Shown piece after piece: positions 18,960 to 64,000 of a DNA stretch of 64,000 bases. This stretch comes from Raillietiella orientalis (lineage: Eukaryota). Position 1 is the first letter of the stretch. Each line of letters opens with the position of its first letter. Location: contig JAYWIR010000073.1 in assembly GCA_036172245.1 (NCBI GenBank), positions 310,001-374,000 on the forward strand, read 5' to 3'. The position numbers and the translations under genes are program-made. The notes beneath the pieces are model-generated. The model saw nothing but the letters and a program-made list of their open reading frames with translations, was not told where the DNA came from and did not search any database.

Positions 18960-20760
18960 AAGAGCAACAACTGAGCATCGGCAGTTTGAAAAGTGTTTGT
19001 GACGGGAAGAATTCTTCAGTTCGGGCGATTTCTTCAAGTCTTCTGAGCTTCAGAGCACATTTCTACTCTCGGAACGTACAATCCAATGGCCAATCTTGAA
19101 GCTTGATTCTGTTCGTCGTTGGCATCGTTGCTCCCATGACGTCATTCTGTAACCGAAAAATCCGGTTCCTGCTTGCATTCATACTTGCGATACCTTTCAG
19201 CAGTGTGCAGCACCTCGTAAGCAGGGGATGAAAGTGTATTGGGAAACAATTCTGTCCGGGTGGACAGACGGCGTGTTTCCCTGTCGAAACCAGTCATTCC
19301 ACGAGCTGCTGCAATTCCTCCCGTTTCTGCACGGTCGGTTTCTTCCACTTCCGGGCTCTTGAATTTCCTTCTTTGCATCTCGCATGCTCCATCACGGTTC
19401 TTTCCTCTGTCACCCACGTTGCCCTTCCTCGACCAACGGATACTTCGCATTTGATAGTTCCAAGACCACGGTTATAGACTTCATTCGAGGTAGAATGGTG
19501 AGGCTCGCGAGAACTTGACAGCCGCTCTTCCTGAAGAGTCTGCCACGAATTCTAGGGCACCACACCGAGCTGCAAGGTGGGAGGAGATGTGCTTGCGGGT
19601 CTCCGCACTGAGTCTTCCTCCTCTTGCTTCAACGAGAGGAAAGGTAAGCCCGAATCGGTACCACCGCTGCCACCTTCACACGACCGGAAGCGTCGGCGTC
19701 AGCGGCTGTTCTTATTGCCCACAGGGTGATCACTGCAAGATCAAAACTTGCTGGCGGTATATCATCTTCCATTCCATGGGTCTGGAAGGAAAAGCATCCC
19801 CGCTTGACGTCGGCGTCGTGCCGCGAAGGAACCTGCACCGACGAGTCGTCCTCATTCTTCGCGGCCAAATGCAGCGCCGTCAATCCCAGGTGGCACACGG
19901 CATTCACGACGCCGTGGAACCTCAGGAGATCAACCATTTCGCTGGTGGGGAGCTCATCGTCCTCAACCGGCGCAACGCCACTCGTGCTCGCCGGGCTGAA
20001 GTCGCTACGGTCGCTCCGAAACAAATCCTCCAAGCAGTCCTCTCTGTAGTTCAAGGCAACGTGGAGTGAGGTCCTTCCGTTGTTGTCTCGCGCGTTGATA
20101 TCGCTCCCACGTCCCAGAAGTCTCAGAACACCCTCGTTCCTGTTCCTCGCGGCGATGTGGAGGGCTGTGATGCCCTTGGAAGTCCTGGAGTTGACGCAGG
20201 TCCCGTAACTCAGGAGCACCTCCGCGGTTCCCGAGTTCTCGTTCCACGACGAAAAGTGGAGCGGCGTGTAGTTCTTTATGAGCGACACGGGATCCATGCA
20301 GACTTCAGGAGCTCCTCGGTCACCGAGCTGAACCCGGACGCGGCCGCCACGTGGAGCGGCGTCGCTCCGTTCTTGTTTGCGGCGTCCACGCACGCTCCGC
20401 TGTCCAGCAGCGCCCTGACGACCTCCCTCGCGTTCCCCTGCGCCGCCAGGTGGAGCGGGGTGTTCCCGTCCCCGTTTCGGGCAGACACGTTGGTGTCTCC
20501 GCTGAGGAATATCATTACAGTCTCCACTTCCCCCATGTGGGCCACCTTGTGGAGCAGGCTGTCGGAAGGTCTTCTGGCGCTGCTGGGCTTGGCGAGGAGG
20601 AACTACGCCACTTCCGGGTAGTCCTTTCCGAGGGAGGCACTGACCATTTTGTTGAAATCGCTCTCGTCCTCCAAGCTCAACGGGTAGAGGTGGTCGATTT
20701 TTGCCAACGTTCCCCACCCGACCGCTTTCACCAATTCCTTGTAGGGGCTCTTACCTTTCA
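18960..20760 (-). pseudogene. Ankyrin-repeat (probably ANK-PRANC) pseudogene
   Basis: Clear ANK repeats (GNTPLHLAA, GATPLHVAA, YTPLHFSS, GITALHIAA, GLTALHLAA) are split across frames. In-frame TAG at 20605-20603 and a frameshift near 20300. The N-terminus YKELVKAV...YPEVA*FLL parallels LEELNVAI...YEVAELLL of the 804-aa gene. The C-terminal region is heavily degraded. Confidence 0.85.
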
Positions 20761-29269: not shown

Positions 29270-30480
29270 AGAAGGAATCAGAGTGGAAGGTTGCGTTGCG
29301 GGGCCCGCGTCGGAGCCCCTGTGGCTGCTGCGGTCTCCGAGCTCGGCACCACCAAGCGCACCCGTTTCGAATACTTCGAACGGAATCGCCGTGGATTCGT
29401 GCGGCTTCCGCAAGATGACGATGGTTGTCCCGCATGCATTCGGGTGCGGCGCTGGTAGCGGTTGATACCGGATGCCCCCGATGAGGGCAGGGACACTGAA
29501 AGTCCACTTCCGGGACCTTACAGGACTCAGGGAGCTGGAGTTCTTCCCTTCCGGTTATGCAAAGGAGAACGGACCCCTTAGCGTGGGGGGACCTTTCCGG
29601 TTCATTCAGATGGAAGAGGTGCGTCACCACCTCTCCAGAGAGTGCAGAGAGTGAACCGATCTCTTCGGAGGAGCAGCGCCCTCCTGAATTGTGGAAACGT
29701 CCCTTCGGGGTGCTCTTCAGAGGAGGAGTAAACAGGAGCGGGTTCCCTCCGGAGAAGAAATGCCAGGAGCGGGCATCTTCGGGGATCCCTGCTGAGAGAA
29801 TAAGGAAGGAGATTTTCCTTTGGGGTTGCCTTCGGAGACAAGCAGGGTGGAGAGGAACGGGGCGCCCTCATCTTGAAGAATTCCACGCATCCTTGAGTGG
29901 CGTAGAACAGCGTTAAAGGTCTGCGTGAGCCGCCGCCAGAAGTGCGACGGTTCTTGAGGCACTCAGCGAACCCCCAAAAATAAAAACCCGAAAGAAAAAA
30001 CAAGAAAAAAAAGCTTTAAGCAAGAAAAACAGAGAAGACAGAAAAGAACCCCGGAAGGATCTCCATCATCTCTTCTGTCAGATTTCACTACCTTACATAT
30101 GCTATATTCAGGGTGATTTTCTTCTGAAGACGCATCCGAGGAGGAAACGGTTCCTCGACCAAGGCGTATCGAGAAATCTCCTGGATGACCCGCACACACG
30201 AGCGTGCATTCGTTTTTGCATATGGCTCTTCTCTTTGACCCGCAGAGGTCCTCACGGTGGAGACTAGTCAACACCTCGGTAAGCACTGGTTGGCGTGGAA
30301 CCATCGAAATAGGGTCCGAAAGGCCGATGCAATTCCGGGCAGAACCTCGCCCTGCCAGGTTTCGGCGACTTGTTCCAGTTGACTTCAGGCCAGCAGCATT
30401 CTTCCTCGGACTCTTGGATGGTGTTTCCTCTTTCCTTCCTGTTTGGATCGAAATTTCTTGATCCAGTCACCATTTGCTCG
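29270..30480 (-). mobile_element. LINE 3' remnant plus junction repeat copy
   Basis: WPEVNWNK and Cys-containing remnants at 30.1-30.4 kb, then a T-rich tract on the minus strand at ~30000. 29437-29525 (cattcgggtgcggcgctggtagcgg...) closely matches the reverse complement of ~58670-58757. Confidence 0.65.
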
Positions 30481-31137: not shown

Positions 31138-33117
31138 ATGATGGAAAGGAACAGAAATCTGAGAAGTGTAGCAGAAGAAATTGGAAATATCCCGGAATTT
31201 TATTGGCTGAACTCACGGAGACTGCCCAGAGAAGACACAGAGAGGCCCTCTTTTGGAACTGGTGGCACATTCTTCAGCACGCTGCCCAGAGAACACAGAG
31301 AGAGGCCCTCTTTTGGAACTGGTGGCACATTCTTCAGCACGCTGCCCAGAGAACACACAGAGAGGCCCTCTTTTGGAACTGGTGGCACATTCTTCAACAT
31401 GCATCTTCCGTCGCTTCAGGAACATCTCCGTTCCTTCAATTCCATACCCTTAGGAACGTGGTTTCACGATGAGCTAGACGATATGTTTCCCATTCCAAGT
31501 GCGGCTTTACCTCCTCGAAGGACTCTGAACGGATCTAGCAATGCACAGATCCGGGACGCTGCTGCTCAGAAGAAGGTTCCGTCAAAACGCGCAGGGAGTT
31601 CCGTCAAAACGCACCTGCAGACTGCGCACAGTCTGCAGGTGGTTGTGCCTCATGAGGTTTCTCTGCAAGGAAATGGGTTGGCGAGGGCCCTCCTCGGCAT
31701 CGAAGATTGTGATTCCCTCGCAGCAACGTTGTACCGCGTGACACCGCTGCATCTGGCAGTGTTGAATGATAACAAACCTCTTGCCGAAGTCCTCTTGGAG
31801 CACAACGCTGACGTCAACGCTGCTATGAGCACCGGGAAAACTGCCCTCCACCTCGCTGCGTCCATCGAAAGCATCAGTATGGCTCAGCTGCTCCTAAGCC
31901 ACAACGCCTATGCCGATGCACAGGATGAGAATGGAGAGAACTGCCTTCACTATTCGTTGAGGAATCTGAATCAGGAGATGATGAATCTTTTTTTGCAGCA
32001 CATTGACAACATCGACGCTCAAAACTACTGTGGATTGACCGCTCTCCACTTGGCTTCAATGAGTCCCAGCAGAGCAACGGTGAAGAGCATCCTGGATCGC
32101 AAAGCTAATCTTAATTTGAAAAACAAAGAAGGAACAACCGTGCTCCACATTGCTGTGCAGAACTCAGACAAAAATCTGACGACCTTGCTTCTTAACTACA
32201 AAGCCGACCCCAACGTACAAGATGTGAAAGGAGAAACCGCGCTCCACTCTGCTGTTAAGAACAAGGATGAGGAGCTAGTGGATCTCCTCCTGGATTACAG
32301 CGCTGATGTGAACGTCGAGGATGAGCATGGCAACACTGCGCTACACATGGTTCCCCCCCGTGCACTTGATATCCTCATGAATCTCCTGGAAAATGGTGGC
32401 GACTTCAACCGCACGAACAAGGAAGGGAGAACGCCGCTGGAGAATGCCATCGAAGCTTGTAAGGTCTCATCTAAGGAGATCAGTCTGCACTACTTCTACT
32501 GCCACAACAATTCCACCGAAATTGGATTCGGGGCCTGTGCTCAGCTCTACACGAAATTTGTAGCAAAGTGGAAATCCCTGGGGCTCCATGTGAGCGAGGA
32601 GAACTTACGTGCCCTCAGGACATGTGAATCTTTGGGCTTGCAAGATCTGCTATGTGAATGTGAGAGACAAATTGAGAAAATGAGGAGGAGCAAAGCTGTT
32701 TATAAGATTCCGTATTACGATGTTTTGATGAAAAGAAGGAACCAGTTGGCTGAGTGCATCTGCAATAGAGTCCTCGAGAAGCTCTTCGAAATGGAAGACC
32801 ACAAGTTTGAGTACGACGAAATGGCCGAGATTCTGGAGGACCAGTTTGAACGAGGGAAGAAGAGGGGGGCGTTGCTAGAAGAATTCAATGAGGCTTTTGG
32901 GTCTCCTCACGCAAGCTGTTCCATTTTGCCAGGCAACTGTAGGGATCAGATATCTGATTATTTAACTGATAGGCAGCTAGCAAAGTTTGTGGATGCTTTC
33001 AGATCCGAGTGCCCTCAGTCCCGACCTCCCTACAGCTATGAAAAACGTTTTTTTAGAAAATCCGTATCGTTTGGATGTTACTGTTCTGATCAGTGGAATA
33101 CCGTCAAACTTTGGTGA
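31138..33117 (+). CDS. Intronless ankyrin-repeat protein with C-terminal PRANC/F-box-like domain (~659 aa)
   Basis: Uninterrupted ORF with about 8 ANK repeats (TPLHLAV, GKTALHLAA, GLTALHLAS, GETALHSAV...). The C-terminus KFVAKWKSLGLHVSEENL...CERQIEKM...YYDVL...LPGNCRDQISDYLTDRQL fits the PRANC pattern. First ATG at 31138. Confidence 0.9.
   Translation: MMERNRNLRSVAEEIGNIPEFYWLNSRRLPREDTERPSFGTGGTFFSTLPREHRERPSFGTGGTFFSTLPREHTERPSFGTGGTFFNMHLPSLQEHLRSFNSIPLGTWFHDELDDMFPIPSAALPPRRTLNGSSNAQIRDAAAQKKVPSKRAGSSVKTHLQTAHSLQVVVPHEVSLQGNGLARALLGIEDCDSLAATLYRVTPLHLAVLNDNKPLAEVLLEHNADVNAAMSTGKTALHLAASIESISMAQLLLSHNAYADAQDENGENCLHYSLRNLNQEMMNLFLQHIDNIDAQNYCGLTALHLASMSPSRATVKSILDRKANLNLKNKEGTTVLHIAVQNSDKNLTTLLLNYKADPNVQDVKGETALHSAVKNKDEELVDLLLDYSADVNVEDEHGNTALHMVPPRALDILMNLLENGGDFNRTNKEGRTPLENAIEACKVSSKEISLHYFYCHNNSTEIGFGACAQLYTKFVAKWKSLGLHVSEENLRALRTCESLGLQDLLCECERQIEKMRRSKAVYKIPYYDVLMKRRNQLAECICNRVLEKLFEMEDHKFEYDEMAEILEDQFERGKKRGALLEEFNEAFGSPHASCSILPGNCRDQISDYLTDRQLAKFVDAFRSECPQSRPPYSYEKRFFRKSVSFGCYCSDQWNTVKLW
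31222..31396 (+). repeat. In-frame 60-bp tandem repeat, ~2.9 copies
   Basis: Near-identical units encoding LPRE(D/H)(T/R)ERPSFGTGGTFFST. Confidence 0.97.
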
Positions 33118-33191
33118 ACGAATTCTCCCTCCTGGAGGCTGTGAGTTTCCTTTTTTTTTTTTTTACTTTCGACAAACTTGGTAGAAGGCAC

Positions 33192-40348: not shown

Positions 40349-41627
40349 CTAGCATTTGCTAGCTGCTGTTTCTGGAAAATACTTATGATAGTTCATAGAT
40401 TCTAGATAGATGGAACATAGATGCTGCAAAAAACCGTCCGCAGCGAACGAAGACATCCCACTTCTGGGATAAAAGAGGTGTGTACATGTGACTGTCAAGG
40501 TTCTTAGAGAGAAAAAGAACGAGTACGCATTTGACAAGATTGCTGATTCATGTCTTCTCTGTCACAACACTTTCAAACAGTGTCCAATAAAGCTGACTCG
40601 ATTCATTTTCGGCTTCGAACGTTGTGTTTTTACTATATGTTTTCTAGCATCCAAAGGTTTCAAACTGCACAGATTCAGAAATCTCTTCACCATGGTTGTT
40701 TTCCACTGCATCAGCTGACTTTTGCGGACCTTCCCAGACCACTGCAAATTCCTCCTGATGGTTTGACTCTGATAGTCACAAAACATGCTAACACATTCTA
40801 CCAGTTGCTGTAAGAAGGTCTCAGGAATCTCATGCTTTTGAAACACTGGACAATGCAATTTGTGGATAGTTGCACCATTCTTCCAAGGGGAACATTCTTT
40901 TACTTGTAATAATTTCAACACGGAGTGCCGACATTGCAACAGTTTATCAGGGGGCTGAAAGTGTTCACACACAACATAAACTTCCGAATTTCCTGGTTTA
41001 CTGCTTGCTGGTTTAAACACTTGCACTTTGTGGAAAGAGCAAACCAACAAATACATTAAGCATATTGTTTGACACTCGAATGTAGTAAATATTTTCAGAA
41101 CAAAACATCCTCCCACTTTAAGTGAATGTATTGCCAAAAGGATTTTGCAGAATTGTAGCTCAGATGTCATTGATTCTTGACTCCCAGGATTTGAACTGCA
41201 GTCAATGCTCCCATCTGCAGTAACCTAGGAAAGCCACACACAATACGTAACAGGTGATTCAAGCAAAGTATACCAAGTTTATCTCGCCTATTTCGGAGAG
41301 CTGTCCCATGAGGTTGGACGGAATTGTAATGTCACCTGTTTCATCTGCTCCAAACAACCGGCTATGGCATGTTTTCTCCATAAACCAGCTATCTGATGCA
41401 ATGCAACTCTCAGTACCTCCTTGGCAGAAGGGATTCAAGCTGGAAGCTCCCCAGATCCACTTGTAGGGAAAAAAATTGCAAAATTATTTTGGAAGAAGCA
41501 ATTCTGCCTTTACATCCAGTTCTAAACAGATATCTGCAAAGTTTGTTGTGTGTGTGTGCATTGTGATGAGCTTCAAGCTATTTGAATTCTGGATACTTGC
41601 CAGGAGAGCGTGTTTTGAAAAATTAAC
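40349..41627 (-). CDS. CMTR2: Cap2 mRNA 2'-O-methyltransferase-like (CMTR2/FTSJD1); both ends uncertain, possibly a pseudogene
   Basis: Exon 41459-41274 (WIWGASSLNPF...FGADETGDI) and an exon from 41224 (VTADGSIDC...GGCFVLKIFTTFE...FKPASSKPGNSEVYVVC) match the FtsJ-type CMTR2 core. Introns are 54 and 49 bp. Confidence 0.85.
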
Positions 41628-47986: not shown

Positions 47987-49134
47987 TCACTTGCAAAATT
48001 TACAAAAGCCCAAGTGATCCTTCGTAAATACACGATGTACAACTCCTGACCACCCGCTTAGCTGCTGGCAAGAACTATGAAACTCCATCCATGAGGACTT
48101 TCCTGAGTCAACCGTGATTAAAAGACGAAAGGTGCAACCTGTTTTTTTCTTTTTCAGACTTTGAACACTTGGTCTCATTCTATTGAAGGACTTTAACTTT
48201 GTTTTTGGCACTTCAGCGGAAACTTTCGTATGAAGCTCACGGGCTGATTGAGCCGCGCGCGTGATGACTATTTGTAATAGCTGTGAATGGGTTCCTTGCT
48301 GGTACGATGAATGGCCCTATTTCTCCGCAGTCAATGGCGAGACCTATCGCGGTAGTCCATCCTCGCTGCCCCGTGCTTTTTCCCGTACAAATGCCCCGGG
48401 AAAACACTCCTTCCACTGCACGCCAAAGCGCGGGGGTGGGGGAGGGGGCGCGCGCCATCGACGGCTGCAGGGGCAGATCGAGAAGCTTCGGTCTTGTTGC
48501 TAACGGCAACGGGATCGAAAGGATTCTGCCAAGCGGGAATTCCGATGCGCAGGGTCCATCTCCCTCTCTTATGTATGTATTTTACACGAATGCCTAATGA
48601 AATCGACTGGAAACCGAAATATGCATCACTTTTTTTTTCTTTTCTTTGCAAAACACTGAGTGCTTGCGATTCGGAGTTTCGGTGGTTCATGCAATGATCA
48701 TTCCCTATTTCCATTTCTTTTTCACCCCCATTCACACAGCATGGAAGCAAGCGGGTCGAACGCAAAAGTGAGGTGGTCAACTTACTTTTAGGCCATTTCA
48801 AAAAGGTGTAGTCGCCATACATCATTACCAGAACTGGATAAAATGACGCATCGTAAATCTTATTCAGGTTTCTCTGAATTTCGTGCGTGGATCCGATCAC
48901 GTACTTGCGGTAGTCGTAGAGGGCATACGAGGCGTCAATTAAGATGCCGAATGTTCTGTACCCTCTCCTTTGGTTTTCGAAAGTTTTGTCCAATTCTTTA
49001 TCCATCATGTCCGTAGAGTAATCTATGGTACACTGCGCTGACGACAGCCGTGCTGACGACAAGACCAGCACCAAGAGTGCCAGGGACCCCCGGAAAACAC
49101 GGTGGGTGGCCTGGTACAGTCGCCGCGTACACAT
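47987..49134 (-). CDS. Putative secreted protein with a von Willebrand A-like domain, multi-exon (3' structure unresolved)
   Basis: ATG at 49134 and a signal-like SLALLVLVLSSARLSSA. Then TFGILIDASYAL...PVLVMMYGD (VWA beta1/beta2-like). Downstream segments GWTTAIGLAID and LLITVDSG resemble later VWA motifs. Confidence 0.45.
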
Positions 49135-58299: not shown

Positions 58300-58895
58300 C
58301 TCCTGGAGGGAACCATCCTATGAAATCAGGAAAGGACTCCGGAGAAGGGAATCCGTTCCTTTCACTCCTGGAGAGAAATCCCTGAGGGGAACTTCCTCCC
58401 TGGTTTCCTCCAGAGAGACCCCAAAGATGCCGGCTCTTGGAATTCTTCGAAGGGACCCTCTCGCAAGGGAATCGCTCCTGTTCCTCCTCTTAAGAAAACC
58501 CCGAAAAAACGCTTCCGAAATGTTTCTAAAGGGTGGAGCTCTCCGATAGAAGCGGCACGCTTCTCTGAACTCTAGAGAGGTGGCGACACACCTACTCCAC
58601 GATGGTTCCCCCCAGAATGAGGAGTACTCTCCTTTGCACAACCGGAGGGGAACTCCCACTCCTCGATTCCTGGAAGGACCCGGAGGGTCGACTTCCATTG
58701 TCCCGGTCACTCATCGAGGCAACCGGTTTGAACCGCTACTAGCGCCGCACCCGAATGAATAGAGCCCAACCAGAGTCATCTCCCAAAAGTAACTCGAACC
58801 CGCGACGCAACCTTCCCCCTCTTCCTTTCATCTCTCGGCCTCAATTCTTTCCGAGTGTTCGAGCCCGCGACGCTTCGCGGGTGCCACGCGCGGCG
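58300..58895. repeat. Junction repeat copy (longest)
   Basis: Multiple blocks shared with the 17.0-17.5, 29.3-29.9, 44.4-44.6 and 56.4-56.7 kb copies. Confidence 0.8.
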
Positions 58896-59119
58896 ACTTC
58901 AGCAGCCACGCGGTCCCCGTTGTAAGGACCTCAGCGAAACTCGAGACTCAAAGCGAGCACTCGCGCTGGTTCCTCTCTGTACAAGATGAAGAACCAGGAG
59001 AAAAGCAGATGAAATTTCCAAAGCAAACATCAGCTCGGCATGCTCGGACTTTTTTTTTTTTTTCTAGTGATTCGCATGACGAAGCGCTTTGTGCATTCAA
59101 ATCATTATCGTACATTCTG

Positions 59120-61534
59120 TTATGAATCTTCGGAGCTGGACTTATGCAGATCGATGGATTCCAAAGCATTCACGAAATGCTTCAAATCTTCTTCATCCAG
59201 GAAGCTCGATATCTTGTTGGTACAGACGCGCGGCAAGATGGGGCAGTCCCTGAAACAGTGATCGAAAACGGGGAAGAACGCTTCGAGCAGCTCTCTCCTC
59301 TCCGTTCCTTTTACAAACTGAGCTTCTACCAGAGCGCCGTATATTGGAAATCTGTCTGTGAGGGTCAAGTGCTCCTCTCGGAAGAACCGGATGATGCTCG
59401 CGTTCCCGGTGCAGAACGCGAGCTCGTTGCCGTGCTTAACCAATATGTCCGAGAAGGAGACGTTGTCGCCGATCTTCGTCGACTTCATCCTCTGAAGTTC
59501 TTTTTCGCACTCAGACGTGTAGCTCCGCAGGAGACAGACCTCGTTGAGGATCTCAAAAGCCTCCATGTTCCTCCTGCTCACGTAGATGCCGCAGAAACGC
59601 ATTCTCACGATGAAGCGTGTGAGGATCGTGATGATGCACTCTAGAGCGGACAGCGCTTTCTCGCGTCCCACAGCCTGCGCCTGCGAATAGTGCTCCCAGA
59701 GCCTGTTGGCCAAGGCGAGGATAGTCTCTCCGGTGTTGTTGACGGCGTTGAATTCGGCGCCCTCCTGCAGCAGGATCATGACCATTTCCGGGTTCATCTT
59801 CCAGACCGCGTTGTAGAGGGCAGTCGATCCGACGTTGTCCTTCGCGTCGATTTCGGCGCCGGAATCCAGGAGAATCCGAAGCAGAGCCGACACGCTGGGC
59901 ATGGAAGACATTACGCCCGCGTTGGCGAGGATATGGAGCGGGGTCGACCCGTTGATGTTCCTGCTGTTGACGTCGGCCTTGTAATCCAGCAGGAGCTTCA
60001 CCGCCTCGTGGTTGTACATCTGGGTGGCCATGTGGAGCGCGGTCATGTTTCTGTAATTCGTGGCATTGACGTCGATCCCGTGGTCCAGGAAGAGCTTCGC
60101 CATCTTGAGGTTCCTGAAGTTGATGGCGAAGTGGAGGGCGTTTCCGTCCCCGAACCCCTCGTTCACGTCGGCGTGGAACTCCAGCAGGTGTTTCGTTATT
60201 TCAAAGTTCTTGGACTGGACGGCGATGCGGAACGACGTCATCCCGTTTGGATTCCGGATTTGGACGTCAGCGCCGTGCTCCAGGAGCAGCCGGACCAGGT
60301 TCGGGTTCCTCTGCCTGACCGCGATGTGGAGCGCGGTGAGCCCGTCGCCCTCGATCGCATTCACGTCGGCCTTGTGCTCCAGCAGGACGCTGGCCACCAC
60401 CAGGTTGCCGGTTTCGCTGGCGATGTGGAGCGCGGTCGTCCCGCACCTTCCCCTGCGGCTCTCTGTGGCACCGCCGCGGCGCATGAGGAGAGCCCCCAGG
60501 TGGTAATCTTCGTACTTCTTGATGAGGCGGAGCAGGATCCTCTCGCTCTTGTACCCGTTCTTGATATCGGCCTTGAACTCCGACAGGTGTTTCTCGAGGT
60601 CGTAACTTTCGCTGGGGTCGGCGCTGTGGGTCTCCGCGCTGTGCTTCGAGAGGAGGTCCACAAACATCTCGTATTCCGGCTTGTCGACCATCGGGACGGC
60701 AGGCCTGCCGATCGGGCACCTGGCGTTCACGTCGGCGCCGTGCTCCAGCAGATAGAGCGCGACATCCTTGTTCGAGTTGGTGGCCGCGCAGTGGAGCGCC
60801 GTCGTCCCGTAATTGCACGTGGCGTCGACCTCGGCCCCGTTCTCCAGCAGCAGCCTCGAGATCTGCTCGTTCCTCTTCAGGGCGGCCAGGTGGAGGGAGG
60901 TCGCTCCGCTCGCGGCCCTGGAGCCGACGGGAGCACCGTAGCTAAGCAGCAGCCCCATCGTCCTTGCGCTCCCCTTTAGGGTGGCAAAGTGGAGCGGGGT
61001 GTACCCCGGCCGCTTCTCCGACGTGCAGCTGAAGTCGGGGCTCGCCCCGTACTTCAGCAGGAGTTCCACGAGCAGGGAGGATCTCTTCTGAGAGGAGATG
61101 TGGATCGGCGCCATCCCGTTGTCGTTTACGCAGTTTGCCGACGCTCCGGCCTCCAAAAGCATCTTGGCAATCTTCCGTTCCGAATTCCCCACGGCCAGGT
61201 GCAGGGGGCTCGCCAACCTCTCGTTCAGGACGTCCACGCGGGCGCCCCTCTTCAAGAGCATCTCCGTCATTGAGGCGTTCCCGGAACGAACAGCAAAGTG
61301 GAGCGGCGTGCCGGAAAACCCGGGGGTGTCGCTGTTGACCGCACACCCGTATTCCAGAAGCAACTCGGCAACCTCGTAGCTGTGGTGCTGGAGAGCATCG
61401 CAGAGCAGCGTGTAGCCTTCGCACCACGATTCCGAGTAGCGGAGACCAACGGAGTGGATGATTTCCCTTACTTTCCCGACGATTCCCTCGCGTATGGCTA
61501 CGTTTAATTCTTCCAGTAGCTCCAGGTTTTCCAT
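59120..61534 (-). CDS. Intronless ankyrin-repeat protein with C-terminal PRANC/F-box-like domain (804 aa)
   Basis: Uninterrupted ORF with roughly 15 recognisable ANK repeats plus a degenerate central block. The C-terminus reads RFIVRMRFCGIYVSRRN...ECEKELQRMKSTKI...FSDIL...FPIYG...KG..RRELL...LPRVCTNKISSFLDEEDL. Confidence 0.93.
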   Translation of the reverse strand: MENLELLEELNVAIREGIVGKVREIIHSVGLRYSESWCEGYTLLCDALQHHSYEVAELLLEYGCAVNSDTPGFSGTPLHFAVRSGNASMTEMLLKRGARVDVLNERLASPLHLAVGNSERKIAKMLLEAGASANCVNDNGMAPIHISSQKRSSLLVELLLKYGASPDFSCTSEKRPGYTPLHFATLKGSARTMGLLLSYGAPVGSRAASGATSLHLAALKRNEQISRLLLENGAEVDATCNYGTTALHCAATNSNKDVALYLLEHGADVNARCPIGRPAVPMVDKPEYEMFVDLLSKHSAETHSADPSESYDLEKHLSEFKADIKNGYKSERILLRLIKKYEDYHLGALLMRRGGATESRRGRCGTTALHIASETGNLVVASVLLEHKADVNAIEGDGLTALHIAVRQRNPNLVRLLLEHGADVQIRNPNGMTSFRIAVQSKNFEITKHLLEFHADVNEGFGDGNALHFAINFRNLKMAKLFLDHGIDVNATNYRNMTALHMATQMYNHEAVKLLLDYKADVNSRNINGSTPLHILANAGVMSSMPSVSALLRILLDSGAEIDAKDNVGSTALYNAVWKMNPEMVMILLQEGAEFNAVNNTGETILALANRLWEHYSQAQAVGREKALSALECIITILTRFIVRMRFCGIYVSRRNMEAFEILNEVCLLRSYTSECEKELQRMKSTKIGDNVSFSDILVKHGNELAFCTGNASIIRFFREEHLTLTDRFPIYGALVEAQFVKGTERRELLEAFFPVFDHCFRDCPILPRVCTNKISSFLDEEDLKHFVNALESIDLHKSSSEDS

Positions 61535-64000
61535 GTTGCTTGCGTCACTGGCATTTCGATCTCACGGCAGATTAGAAAAACAAGGAAAAAAAGGAAACAC
61601 GCGGCAGCCCAGCTCGTGTAGCTGGATGCAGTTTCCCTCGAGTAGTGTAGATGTATCTCGTGGGAAGACAGACCAGAAAGCGATGACGGACTTTACATTC
61701 CCTTTACGGTGACCGCCGTATGAAGCATCTTGCGGAACAAAAAAGAAGGCCACCCTCTTTCTCGCTGCCTCACAAGAAGTTGCGGTGTTGGCTTCTCGGT
61801 CGGTTCGTGGGTCGGTAACGGGTGTCAAGGAAACGCCTCTTCGCTAGGACAACTGAAGACCTTTCCCGCCATTCCACGGCGGCGAAATTTCAAGCGCACG
61901 CTCTCTGCATCCCACACTTACTGGCCATCGTGATAGGACACACTTTCCTTTTCTTCGCTCAAGGTCACAGGACGAACTGCCGCCAACTTTCCGGAAGGCT
62001 AAGAGGAATTTGCATGCAAAAGAACTGCAGCTGCAGGAACCGGATTTAGGAAACAATTTTTCGACCCCAGCGGATTCGCGGGACTTCCGTGCGAACGGTC
62101 TTTTTATCGATCGCGAAGGGCACTTTCTCGGGTCACGTGCTCAGCGCTCCAGCGAACTCGGAACGCGTGCCCGCGAGGGCCTTCACGCGGCGCGCAATGC
62201 GGCGCATCTCCGTTTCCCTTCCAGACTTGCAAAAGATACGAGCAGAATCTTCGTTTGGGTGCAACCTGCGCAGTCAAAGGTGCTCTTCGAGCGAGCAAAG
62301 AACCTTTTTCGGACTGCCACAGAATTTCTCCCGAGGAAGGCAAGGAGATTCCCGCAAAGACCAACTGCGGCGATGGAAACGGAGCAGTCAGCGCCCCATT
62401 CCAACTGTGCTGGCGCGAGCCAGCACCAGAGAGGACCCTGCTGCTCGCACGTGCGCTCATGGGATCGTGCTGGACAGCAGTCATTCGAGGTGCGTGTTTT
62501 CCCCTCAGGACTCGCATCTTCCTGAATAAGGGAACATGGGAAATCCGGGAAGACTGACGTGAGTTTGCAAGAGGTTTACCCGAGAAACGCCTGCAAACAA
62601 CCCAAGGGTGCCATGGTTCTCTTGCCGTCGTGTTGTTTACGGCCACACGAGTTTCCTCTTCTTATTCAGGATGATTTTCCTGATCCCAATGTCTGCTGGC
62701 TTCAGCAACTGTATCATTTTATGTTTGACACCTTCCGTGTTCGAGGCCAAGCACAAGCAATCGGATTCGCCCGTTTTTCTCAATGGCTCCTCTGGAAGCA
62801 TCATGTTCGGAAGAGTCTTTGAGGTTCTTCTATTTAAAATAGGAAAGAAAGTTCGTCTGAAGGTTGCACGATATCAGCCCTATAATTCCTTAAGGACCTG
62901 ACTCTGTTTTAGGAAAACAGCGAGGTGACCCGTCCTTATTTAGCGGCTATAAGAGAGCCGCAGGCTCCATTCGCTTTCATCATCCGCTATTATCCTTCAA
63001 GCACTCCATGAGTCTTGAAAAGACAAAAAAAAGGAGAGAGAATTTGGTTGCACACACCCCATGGCAATGAGAATGATTTAAGGAGTTCATCTCGGATGAA
63101 TAAGGATTCATCCAGGGATTCACTTCATTCTGGAGGCTTCAGAAAGTCTTACACACCCAGAGCACCATGCACTCTGACCACAGGCAGACTATGGTCCACG
63201 GGCAAAGCAAGATGCGCCAACAGCCGCTTTAGGTGATCACCAGTGCTGTCAATCAACTTTCGGTTGCAGCGACAAAAAATAAGGCGCAAAGAGGATACTC
63301 AGCAGCTGGAAGCAGCGCTTGTGCTTCATGTCTTCATCATGCTTCATGTCTTCGCATCTTGTGGAATCCTCAAGATGAGGCAATGCGATTCCCTCCTTTC
63401 GTCCTTCTTGATCTCTCCCTTCAAAACAAACTAGGACGCAGCTCTAGGTTTCTTGCAGCACCTTTGGCACGGAGGAGATGCGCTTCCAGGCGCCAAGATT
63501 CACCACAGTTTTCGAAGAAGCCAAGGAACATTTGGCGAAAGACAGGAAGCGAGAGTTGCTCCGATCATATCACAGAAAAGGGTGATGCCTGTAGCTAAAG
63601 TGTCATGCCAACAAACATTGAGACACAGCAGGCAACTTAGATATGTGACAAGCGAGTACATGTGGTACGTTGGTATTCTCCCGAGATATCAGTGAAGATC
63701 CAGAATGAAGGAGTGGGCATTTCCCTGGAAACGAATATTCTCTGGCCGCACAATACGACTGATAAATTCACGAGTTCGAAGTAAACCACTACGGTTCCGT
63801 CTCCGACAAGAATGGCATCTTCCTCTTCTCTCCAGAACGCCTTCCGCTTCCCTAAGAGCACAGAAAAAGAGATCGCAGCACATCAGCTTTCCTCGGAGCG
63901 CCGGTCTTCGGTTGACATCCACAGTGAAAGCTCCGTTTCTCTGAAGAGGGTCCATCACTGAAAATAAAGGTCACTCCAGGAAGTCAAAATCTCCTCGTCT

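Follow-up and report, generated by a model that had tools for sequence, protein, structure and literature searches.

An intact and divergent ANK-PRANC gene, a candidate SCF adaptor, in gene-poor nuclear DNA of Raillietiella orientalis

A real, intact single-exon gene encoding ankyrin (ANK) repeats followed by a PRANC-type C-terminal tail is present on the minus strand of a 64,000-nucleotide stretch of Raillietiella orientalis DNA (GenBank assembly GCA_036172245.1, contig JAYWIR010000073.1, positions 310,001 to 374,000 of the forward strand; hereafter the window), at positions 59120..61534 counted from the first letter of that stretch. By sequence comparison, the tail of its 804-residue product is a genuine member of the PRANC-bearing family, albeit a divergent one. 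Taken together, the evidence probably describes an animal nuclear gene of old Rickettsiales-type ancestry, locally duplicated and mostly under purifying selection, whose product serves as an adaptor of an SCF (SKP1-CUL1-F-box) ubiquitin ligase. In the mechanism proposed by analogy with characterised relatives, the ANK array would bind a target protein, the last two helices of the tail (LP..C..I..FL..EDL) would constitute a truncated F-box docking on SKP1/CUL1, and the protein as a whole would act as the substrate adaptor of the ligase. The gene itself may go back to an old transfer that involved the host lineage and a bacterium of Rickettsiales type, or that bacterium's phage, with a subsequent local duplication giving rise both to it and to the paralogue at 31 kb, and with purifying selection presumably retaining it for most of its history.

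The reading frame runs unbroken from its ATG to a TAA stop and is the longest open frame of the window, the longest frames outside the ANK genes reaching 348 and 329 codons. At the stop frequency of 0.028 per codon position found outside the ANK loci, the chance of 804 open codons amounts to 1.1e-10 per start and to approximately 1.4e-5 over both strands of the window. The start codon is flanked by A at -3 and G at +4, and the GC content at the first, second, and third codon positions (0.559/0.393/0.822, with 0.59 overall) displays a strong coding periodicity. The coding region is considered intronless because residues 77-796 align as one collinear BLASTP segment with a bacterial relative of 777 residues, and the description in an earlier note on this DNA of an intronless gene for 804 residues with GC-rich third positions was thus borne out. 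Upstream, a pyrimidine-rich stretch ending in AG (61560-61600, minus strand), approximately 25 nucleotides 5' of the ATG, could be the acceptor of an intron in the 5' untranslated region, and an out-of-frame ATG lies 20 nucleotides 5' of the start. Opposite the ANK repeats, a stop-free antisense frame of 444 codons (59645-60976, plus strand) was also noted, explained most simply as a side effect of the high GC3 (GC content at third codon positions) of the ANK codons. The run of 14 A residues 3' of the gene may be what is left of a poly(A) tail, or it may belong to a 3' end signal.

Membership of the tail in the PRANC-bearing family was established through its relatives. A profile built from the two tails of the window, searched against 1.84 billion representative sequences, recovered 734 proteins at E ≤ 0.001, with a top match at 1.8e-28; of these, 153 reach E ≤ 1e-10. 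Together with the two window genes, the latter 153 form a set of 155 sequences, in 150 of which, the 804-residue protein included, the tail domain ends no more than 40 residues from the C-terminus. When 45 relatives and the two window genes were scanned with Pfam, ANK families were found in 45 of the 47 sequences and PRANC in 38 at E ≤ 0.01 (best 4.3e-11), with both window genes among those missed; F-box and F-box-like rows appeared at the same threshold in five and three sequences, respectively, and lay under their cutoffs in the two relatives viewed singly (P0001 and P0283). All five relatives checked singly for PRANC reach its Pfam gathering cutoff of 25.8 bits, with scores from 25.8 to 37.4 bits, and the PRANC-homologous segment of the present protein aligns with the cutoff-passing segments of a Wolbachia protein (P0280) and a Rickettsiales protein (L001).

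A profile made from 28 relatives, leaving out the window sequences, matched the 804-residue protein with 131.7 bits (E 1.1e-42) and the product of the 31 kb gene with 101.9 bits. Thirty-eight columns are conserved in at least 70% of these 28 relatives; the 804-residue protein keeps 32 of them and its paralogue 25. The kept positions comprise SF.DIL, N711, FPIY, F.KG..R..LLE, and the terminal LP..C..I..(F/Y)L..DL, and at family positions the tail is far better conserved than the remainder of the protein. The tail is therefore counted in the PRANC family because homologous relatives pass the cutoff, the profile of relatives alone matches it, and the conserved positions are kept. Other search routes were less productive: a word-index search with the tail gave 334 candidates, none at E ≤ 0.001, and the best score of an ESM Atlas look-up, 0.86, was below the level of a lead. 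As no SOCS box is found among the 11 Pfam rows obtained at E ≤ 1 for the 804-residue protein, an adaptor of the ASB type (ANK repeats with a SOCS box) was also considered and rejected.

The predicted fold of the tail points in the same direction as the sequence. Modelled from an alignment of 30 rows, the 185-residue tail is all-helical, with nine helices and a mean predicted local distance difference test (pLDDT) value of 90.9. Among the best 50 rows of a Foldseek search against predicted viral structures (BFVD), all 32 that carry a name are from poxviruses, nearly all being annotated as ankyrin-repeat or PRANC proteins; these matches, to avipox, parapox, orthopox, and other viruses, span approximately 120-185 columns, at a probability of 1.00 and with a TMq of at most 0.68. 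Sequence-profile searches against PDB chains returned no rows with one profile and seven at E ≤ 10 with another, the best at 0.063 and unrelated. Modelled alone, the last 66 residues give three helices (pLDDT 80.3), a unit too small for a fold search to decide on an F-box. The argument that the tail end is F-box-like hence draws on the literature, on the conserved motif, and on the family to which the tail belongs, and not on a direct structural match. In a 2022 review (PMC9414399), poxviral PRANC is described as ending in an F-box cut to its first two helices, which suffice for Skp1/Cul1 binding; similarly, a study of the Orientia Ank proteins (PMC4148323) reports pull-down of Cullin1/Skp1 only for those with a PRANC-type domain.

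Ahead of the tail, Pfam recognises the ankyrin array with great certainty (Ank_2, E 4.1e-91), dividing it into two blocks with 14 Ank stretches in all. At the DNA level one repeat copy resembles another by only 60-74%, so the array has undergone no recent internal duplication.

Over its tail, the 804-residue protein shares 36% identity across 177 residues (E 5e-34) with the aforementioned Wolbachia protein, itself scoring 33.5 bits for PRANC, which is closer than the 31% shared with its neighbour at 31 kb. Over its whole length, residues 77-796 match residues 12-755 of the 777-residue protein of a Rickettsiales metagenome-assembled genome (MAG), at 31% identity over 768 columns (E 4e-92); this protein (L001 75-2405) scores 33.1 bits for PRANC, and its gene has a GC content of 0.34 and a GC3 of 0.22. 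An Hsp20 family gene (L001 2851-3303) follows it in the MAG, and the 4.3 kb examined there contain no recognisable phage gene. The MAG locus was the one true relative among six loci of a genome-contig scan, the other five being Lachnospiraceae matches of 17-35 residues that were treated as chance; scans of viral and metagenome contigs for the tail confirmed no relative. Apart from group-A Wolbachia and this MAG, the named relatives of the tail belong to insects of five orders, namely Neuroptera (Chrysoperla), Siphonaptera (Ctenocephalides), Diptera (Eurosta), Coleoptera (Photinus, Ceutorhynchus), and Hymenoptera (Lasius, Pseudomyrmex, Temnothorax, Leptopilina, Halictus, Osmia, Microplitis), and many others are unnamed proteins from metagenomes or read assemblies.

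Within the window the tail recurs only in the gene at 31 kb, and a six-frame profile scan of the whole stretch, covering decayed copies as well, found no third tail. The two proteins share 31% identity over 437 columns, both tails included (BLASTP, E 9e-52), and the tails alone 31% over 158 residues (E 1.5e-20), the conserved end being approximately 170 residues long; with only 31% protein identity between the paralogues, synonymous sites must be saturated. The alignment of the two tails put forward in the earlier note therefore stands as homology, and its motifs recur in both genes, save that the one written CE....M has five intervening residues instead of four. Also upheld was the statement that ANK number and N-terminus differ, as the paralogue has 5 Ank and 7 Ank_4 stretches, in place of 14 Ank stretches, behind a non-ANK N-terminus of approximately 190 residues. 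Its GC3 is 0.555, and Pfam gives it no PRANC row at E ≤ 1. The picture of a conserved end joined to a variable array is accordingly sustained as far as the kept tail (32 of 38 columns) and the unequal ANK arrays are concerned, with the SKP1-binding function of that end argued by analogy; within this window the word "repertoire" covers a pair of intact genes plus a single fragment. In the 71-row tail tree the two window genes are sisters with a Shimodaira-Hasegawa-like approximate likelihood ratio (SH-aLRT) of 84, on long branches of 0.76 and 1.48, and neither this tree nor a larger one of 154 rows has a supported clade uniting them with any named insect group.

Retention by selection is suggested by what the gene has kept. 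It is more than 60% diverged from every known relative, yet the open frame and 32 of the 38 conserved positions persist, from which purifying selection for most of its history is drawn. This view of selection is taken from frame and motif retention alone. In a simulation of substitutions only (2000 runs each), the 804-codon frame was still open in 1179 runs at 1% divergence, in 177 at 5%, and in 17 at 10%.

The surroundings of the gene are those of animal nuclear DNA, gene-poor and from a lineage for which the databases searched contain nothing annotated that is closely related. Frames of 110 codons or more, counted from stop to stop, number 203 in the window, and 192 of them were scanned with Pfam, the two ANK-PRANC genes (scanned separately) and nine overlapping frames being set aside; just two of the 192 carry any Pfam family, an ANK fragment (19632-20750) and an exon for an FtsJ-type methyltransferase (40565-41224). 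The latter belongs to a CMTR2-like gene, 18 kb from the ANK-PRANC gene, whose two detected exons are parted by a 49-nucleotide GT..AG intron (41225-41273). The part detected corresponds to no more than residues ~170-450 of relatives that are approximately 700-800 residues long, and its best identities, 37-48%, are spread over chordates, insects, and a brachiopod. Observed over expected CpG is 0.92 across the window, an Rfam scan of the window gave nothing, and no remnant of the bacterial genes that neighbour the Rickettsiales relative was found in it. The positions of the gene, its parts, and the neighbouring loci are collected in Table 1.

Table 1. Positions of the ANK-PRANC gene, its parts, and other features in the 64,000-nucleotide window.
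Feature	Position	Strand	Description
Complete intronless ANK-PRANC coding sequence	59120..61534	minus	804 codons and TAA stop; ATG start
ANK block 1, residues ~40-283	60686..61417	minus	~7 repeats; Pfam Ank/Ank_2; repeat-end motifs at 58, 93, 126, 158, 195, 228, 262
Degenerate stretch separating the ANK blocks, residues ~284-362	60449..60685	minus	Aligns with ANK-bearing sequence of the Rickettsiales relative
ANK block 2, residues ~363-612	59699..60448	minus	~7 repeats; Pfam
Helical linker of the conserved tail, residues ~620-688	59471..59677	minus	Long helical hairpin; C..E...MK motif
PRANC-homologous segment, residues ~689-788	59171..59470	minus	Motifs SF.DIL, N711, FPIY, F.KG..R..LLE, LP..C..I..FL..EDL
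F-box-like two-helix end, residues ~766-790 (ILPRVCTNKISSFLDEEDLKHFVNA)	59165..59239	minus	Conserved motif; predicted helices
A14 run, sense strand of the gene	59050..59063	minus	57 nucleotides past the stop
Paralogous ANK-PRANC-type gene	31138..33117	plus	659 residues; sole other tail copy in the window
CMTR2-like gene (FtsJ-type cap methyltransferase)	40562-41459	minus	Two exons detected; AT-rich patch, GC ~0.40
Third ANK locus	19632..20750	minus	ANK repeats in a frame of 373 codons between stops; the first ATG is codon 152

The third ANK locus lacks the family tail and shows no codon-position GC pattern (0.69/0.52/0.60 at the three positions), and is probably a decayed copy. The phrase "amid decayed DNA", by which the setting had been characterised earlier, is supported to the extent that this tail-less fragment and the CMTR2-like gene with its two detected exons are consistent with decay or with incompleteness. 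Further features of the window were recorded in passing. Within the non-ANK N-terminal part of the paralogue, a tandem repeat (31222-31396, plus strand; a 60-nucleotide unit repeated 2.9 times with 97% matches) encodes a 20-residue repeat (…RPSFGTGGTFFSTLPREH…), and a run of 14 T residues on its sense strand (33151-33164) means that both ANK-PRANC genes have a homopolymer less than 70 nucleotides past the stop; runs of A or T of at least 12 occur at nine places in the window. A 90-nucleotide inverted pair, 74% complementary (29387-29476 and 58718-58807), has one arm 1.7 kb upstream of the paralogue and the other approximately 300 nucleotides downstream of the stop of the 59120..61534 gene, and may be a dispersed short repeat. 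A 267-residue ATG frame (48331-49134, minus strand) with no Pfam family begins with a hydrophobic, signal-peptide-like stretch.

Several results weigh against the interpretation of the gene as a selected SCF adaptor of transferred and duplicated origin. The tail misses the Pfam PRANC cutoff (PF09372), scoring 14.2 bits against 25.8 (E 0.057) where residues 708-786 align with positions 12-94 of the 97-position profile, and no F-box row (PF00646/PF12937) was obtained at E ≤ 1 for the 804-residue protein. The E-values of the viral fold matches start from 1.8e-3, none being at or below 0.001; Foldseek against the PDB gave nothing at E ≤ 0.001 for either the whole tail or the last 66 residues, and a wide structure search of the PDB listed no F-box protein, its best Z-scores (6.4 for the tail and 6.9 for the last 66 residues) belonging to unrelated helical chains. 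No supported group of the 154-row tail tree contains the window genes, and their sister placement in the 71-row tree is suggestive of a local duplication but weak. A loss of function younger than approximately 1-2% divergence would, by the simulation, not yet show as a stop. Lastly, the GC3 of 0.82 is higher than every value set beside it: the flanks have a GC of 0.50-0.53, and GC3 is 0.555 in the paralogue, 0.41 in the CMTR2-like exon, and 0.22 in the bacterial relative. Simple amelioration to the local composition therefore fails as an account of this excess; codon selection, biased gene conversion restricted to the gene, or a GC-rich donor may be responsible. With regard to the first of these points, the sub-threshold PRANC score reflects divergence and not absence of the domain, and the PRANC-like label given in the earlier note, though short of the cutoff by the Pfam search it had called for, is upheld by the relatives that pass and by the fold matches to poxviral ANK/PRANC proteins.

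Among the competing explanations, the one that withstands scrutiny best, although it is considered unlikely, accepts the protein as a true family member whose tail does not recruit, or never recruited, an SCF ligase, the protein acting instead as an F-box-independent ANK scaffold or inhibitor, for instance by sequestering a signalling protein. The sub-cutoff PRANC score, the missing F-box row, and the PDB fold searches that list no F-box protein all lend themselves to it, as does the report in PMC9414399 of F-box-independent activities for several poxviral ANK/F-box proteins. It has to be reconciled, however, with the F-box-like end being the best-kept part, its LP, C, I, L, and DL positions all present, and with the location of that end at the extreme C-terminus, as in SKP1-binding members.

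A decidedly less probable alternative is that of an unexpressed relic recently fallen out of use, be it a processed retrocopy or a stranded transfer. The 804 open codons, the 32 of 38 conserved positions held despite more than 60% divergence from every relative, and the strong codon-position GC pattern all argue against a relic in general, even though the gene is intronless, is followed by the A14 run on its sense strand, and shares the window with a decayed ANK fragment. The absence of introns fits a bacterial origin and equally retroposition; with regard to the latter, no target-site duplication of at least 8 nucleotides was found at the gene, and homopolymer tracts such as those counted above, including the T run past the stop of the 31 kb gene, also count against it.

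Contamination, or DNA that came in very recently from a bacterium or a virus (a Wolbachia insert, say, or a symbiont contig), deserves hardly any credence, for although Wolbachia and a Rickettsiales MAG are among the closest named relatives and the gene is intronless and collinear with a bacterial protein, its identity to bacterial proteins is just 31-40%, its GC and GC3 are 0.59 and 0.82 against 0.34 and 0.22, the gene density is far below that of bacteria or viruses, with Pfam families in 2 of 192 other frames, and a spliced metazoan CMTR2-like gene lies on the same contig with no remnant of bacterial neighbour genes. The same observations answer the contaminant origin that the earlier note had named as a result that would overturn it, and a recent Wolbachia insert in particular was rejected on the base composition of the gene compared with that of the bacterial relative.

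With an adaptor gene of old Rickettsiales-type ancestry as the preferred explanation, the present gene can be set beside the known ANK-PRANC systems. The nearest in architecture are the ANK-PRANC proteins of Wolbachia, phage WO, and Rickettsiales (gwv_1092 in PMC5062602 being an example), which are collinear with it from end to end (777 against 804 residues) and share the same order of tail motifs, 34-40% tail identity, and a PRANC segment aligned to residues ~689-788; unlike them, the present gene resides in gene-poor animal DNA, has a GC3 of 0.82 in place of 0.22, and falls below the PRANC cutoff. Those named insect copies that cluster tightly with the Wolbachia protein have branches of 0.02-0.09, whereas the branch of the present gene, which is much more diverged, is 0.76. 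The insect nuclear genes, including the Nasonia PRANC genes and the CLANKs, lineage-specific ANK genes of Chalcidoidea, treated by Pers and Lynch (2018, PMC6161386), resemble it in being nuclear and in bearing N-terminal ANK repeats. The same source describes, in insects, a PRANC-like C-terminal region of 100-200 residues that often escapes Pfam, in genes that are lineage-specific, duplicated, and rapidly diverging; no chalcid sequence was encountered among the named relatives looked up. The poxviral ANK/F-box (PRANC) host-range proteins, as reviewed in PMC9414399, likewise combine an ANK array with a helical C-terminus ending in a truncated two-helix F-box, but they are viral and act on the host, whereas the present gene belongs to a host genome and has no significant direct sequence match to them. 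The Ank-PRANC effectors of Orientia tsutsugamushi (PMC4148323) offer the same succession of ANK repeats and an F-box-like PRANC, and are the basis on which an adaptor role may be proposed here; they differ in being bacterial and secreted, and no Orientia protein was among the named relatives examined.

ANK-PRANC genes are already in print for insect genomes (PMC6161386) and for Wolbachia and phage WO (PMC5062602), some of those in Nasonia being described as wired into embryonic patterning (PMC6161386), while the 2022 review speaks of the combination as extremely rare in eukaryotes (PMC9414399). A more far-reaching account, entertained only tentatively and with low confidence, would have the two genes as survivors of an independent old capture of a Rickettsiales- or phage-type ANK-PRANC effector by an animal lineage without described genes of this kind, the copy being fully recoded (from a GC3 of the 0.22 type to 0.82), collinear with the bacterial protein over its whole length nonetheless, and now a host SCF adaptor. 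Were that so, the overshoot in GC3 above the local background would point to strong codon selection on a foreign gene that has been domesticated and is highly expressed.

Traffic among intracellular bacteria and their phages, large DNA viruses, and the genomes of arthropods has a textbook example in ANK-PRANC genes. Relatives bearing the tail occur in named species from five orders of insects, and the very divergent, GC3-rich pair described here now joins them. As it stands, the gene adds a divergent member to a known family, not a principle. If it is expressed and its product binds SKP1, it would represent another foreign ubiquitin-ligase adaptor kept by a host.

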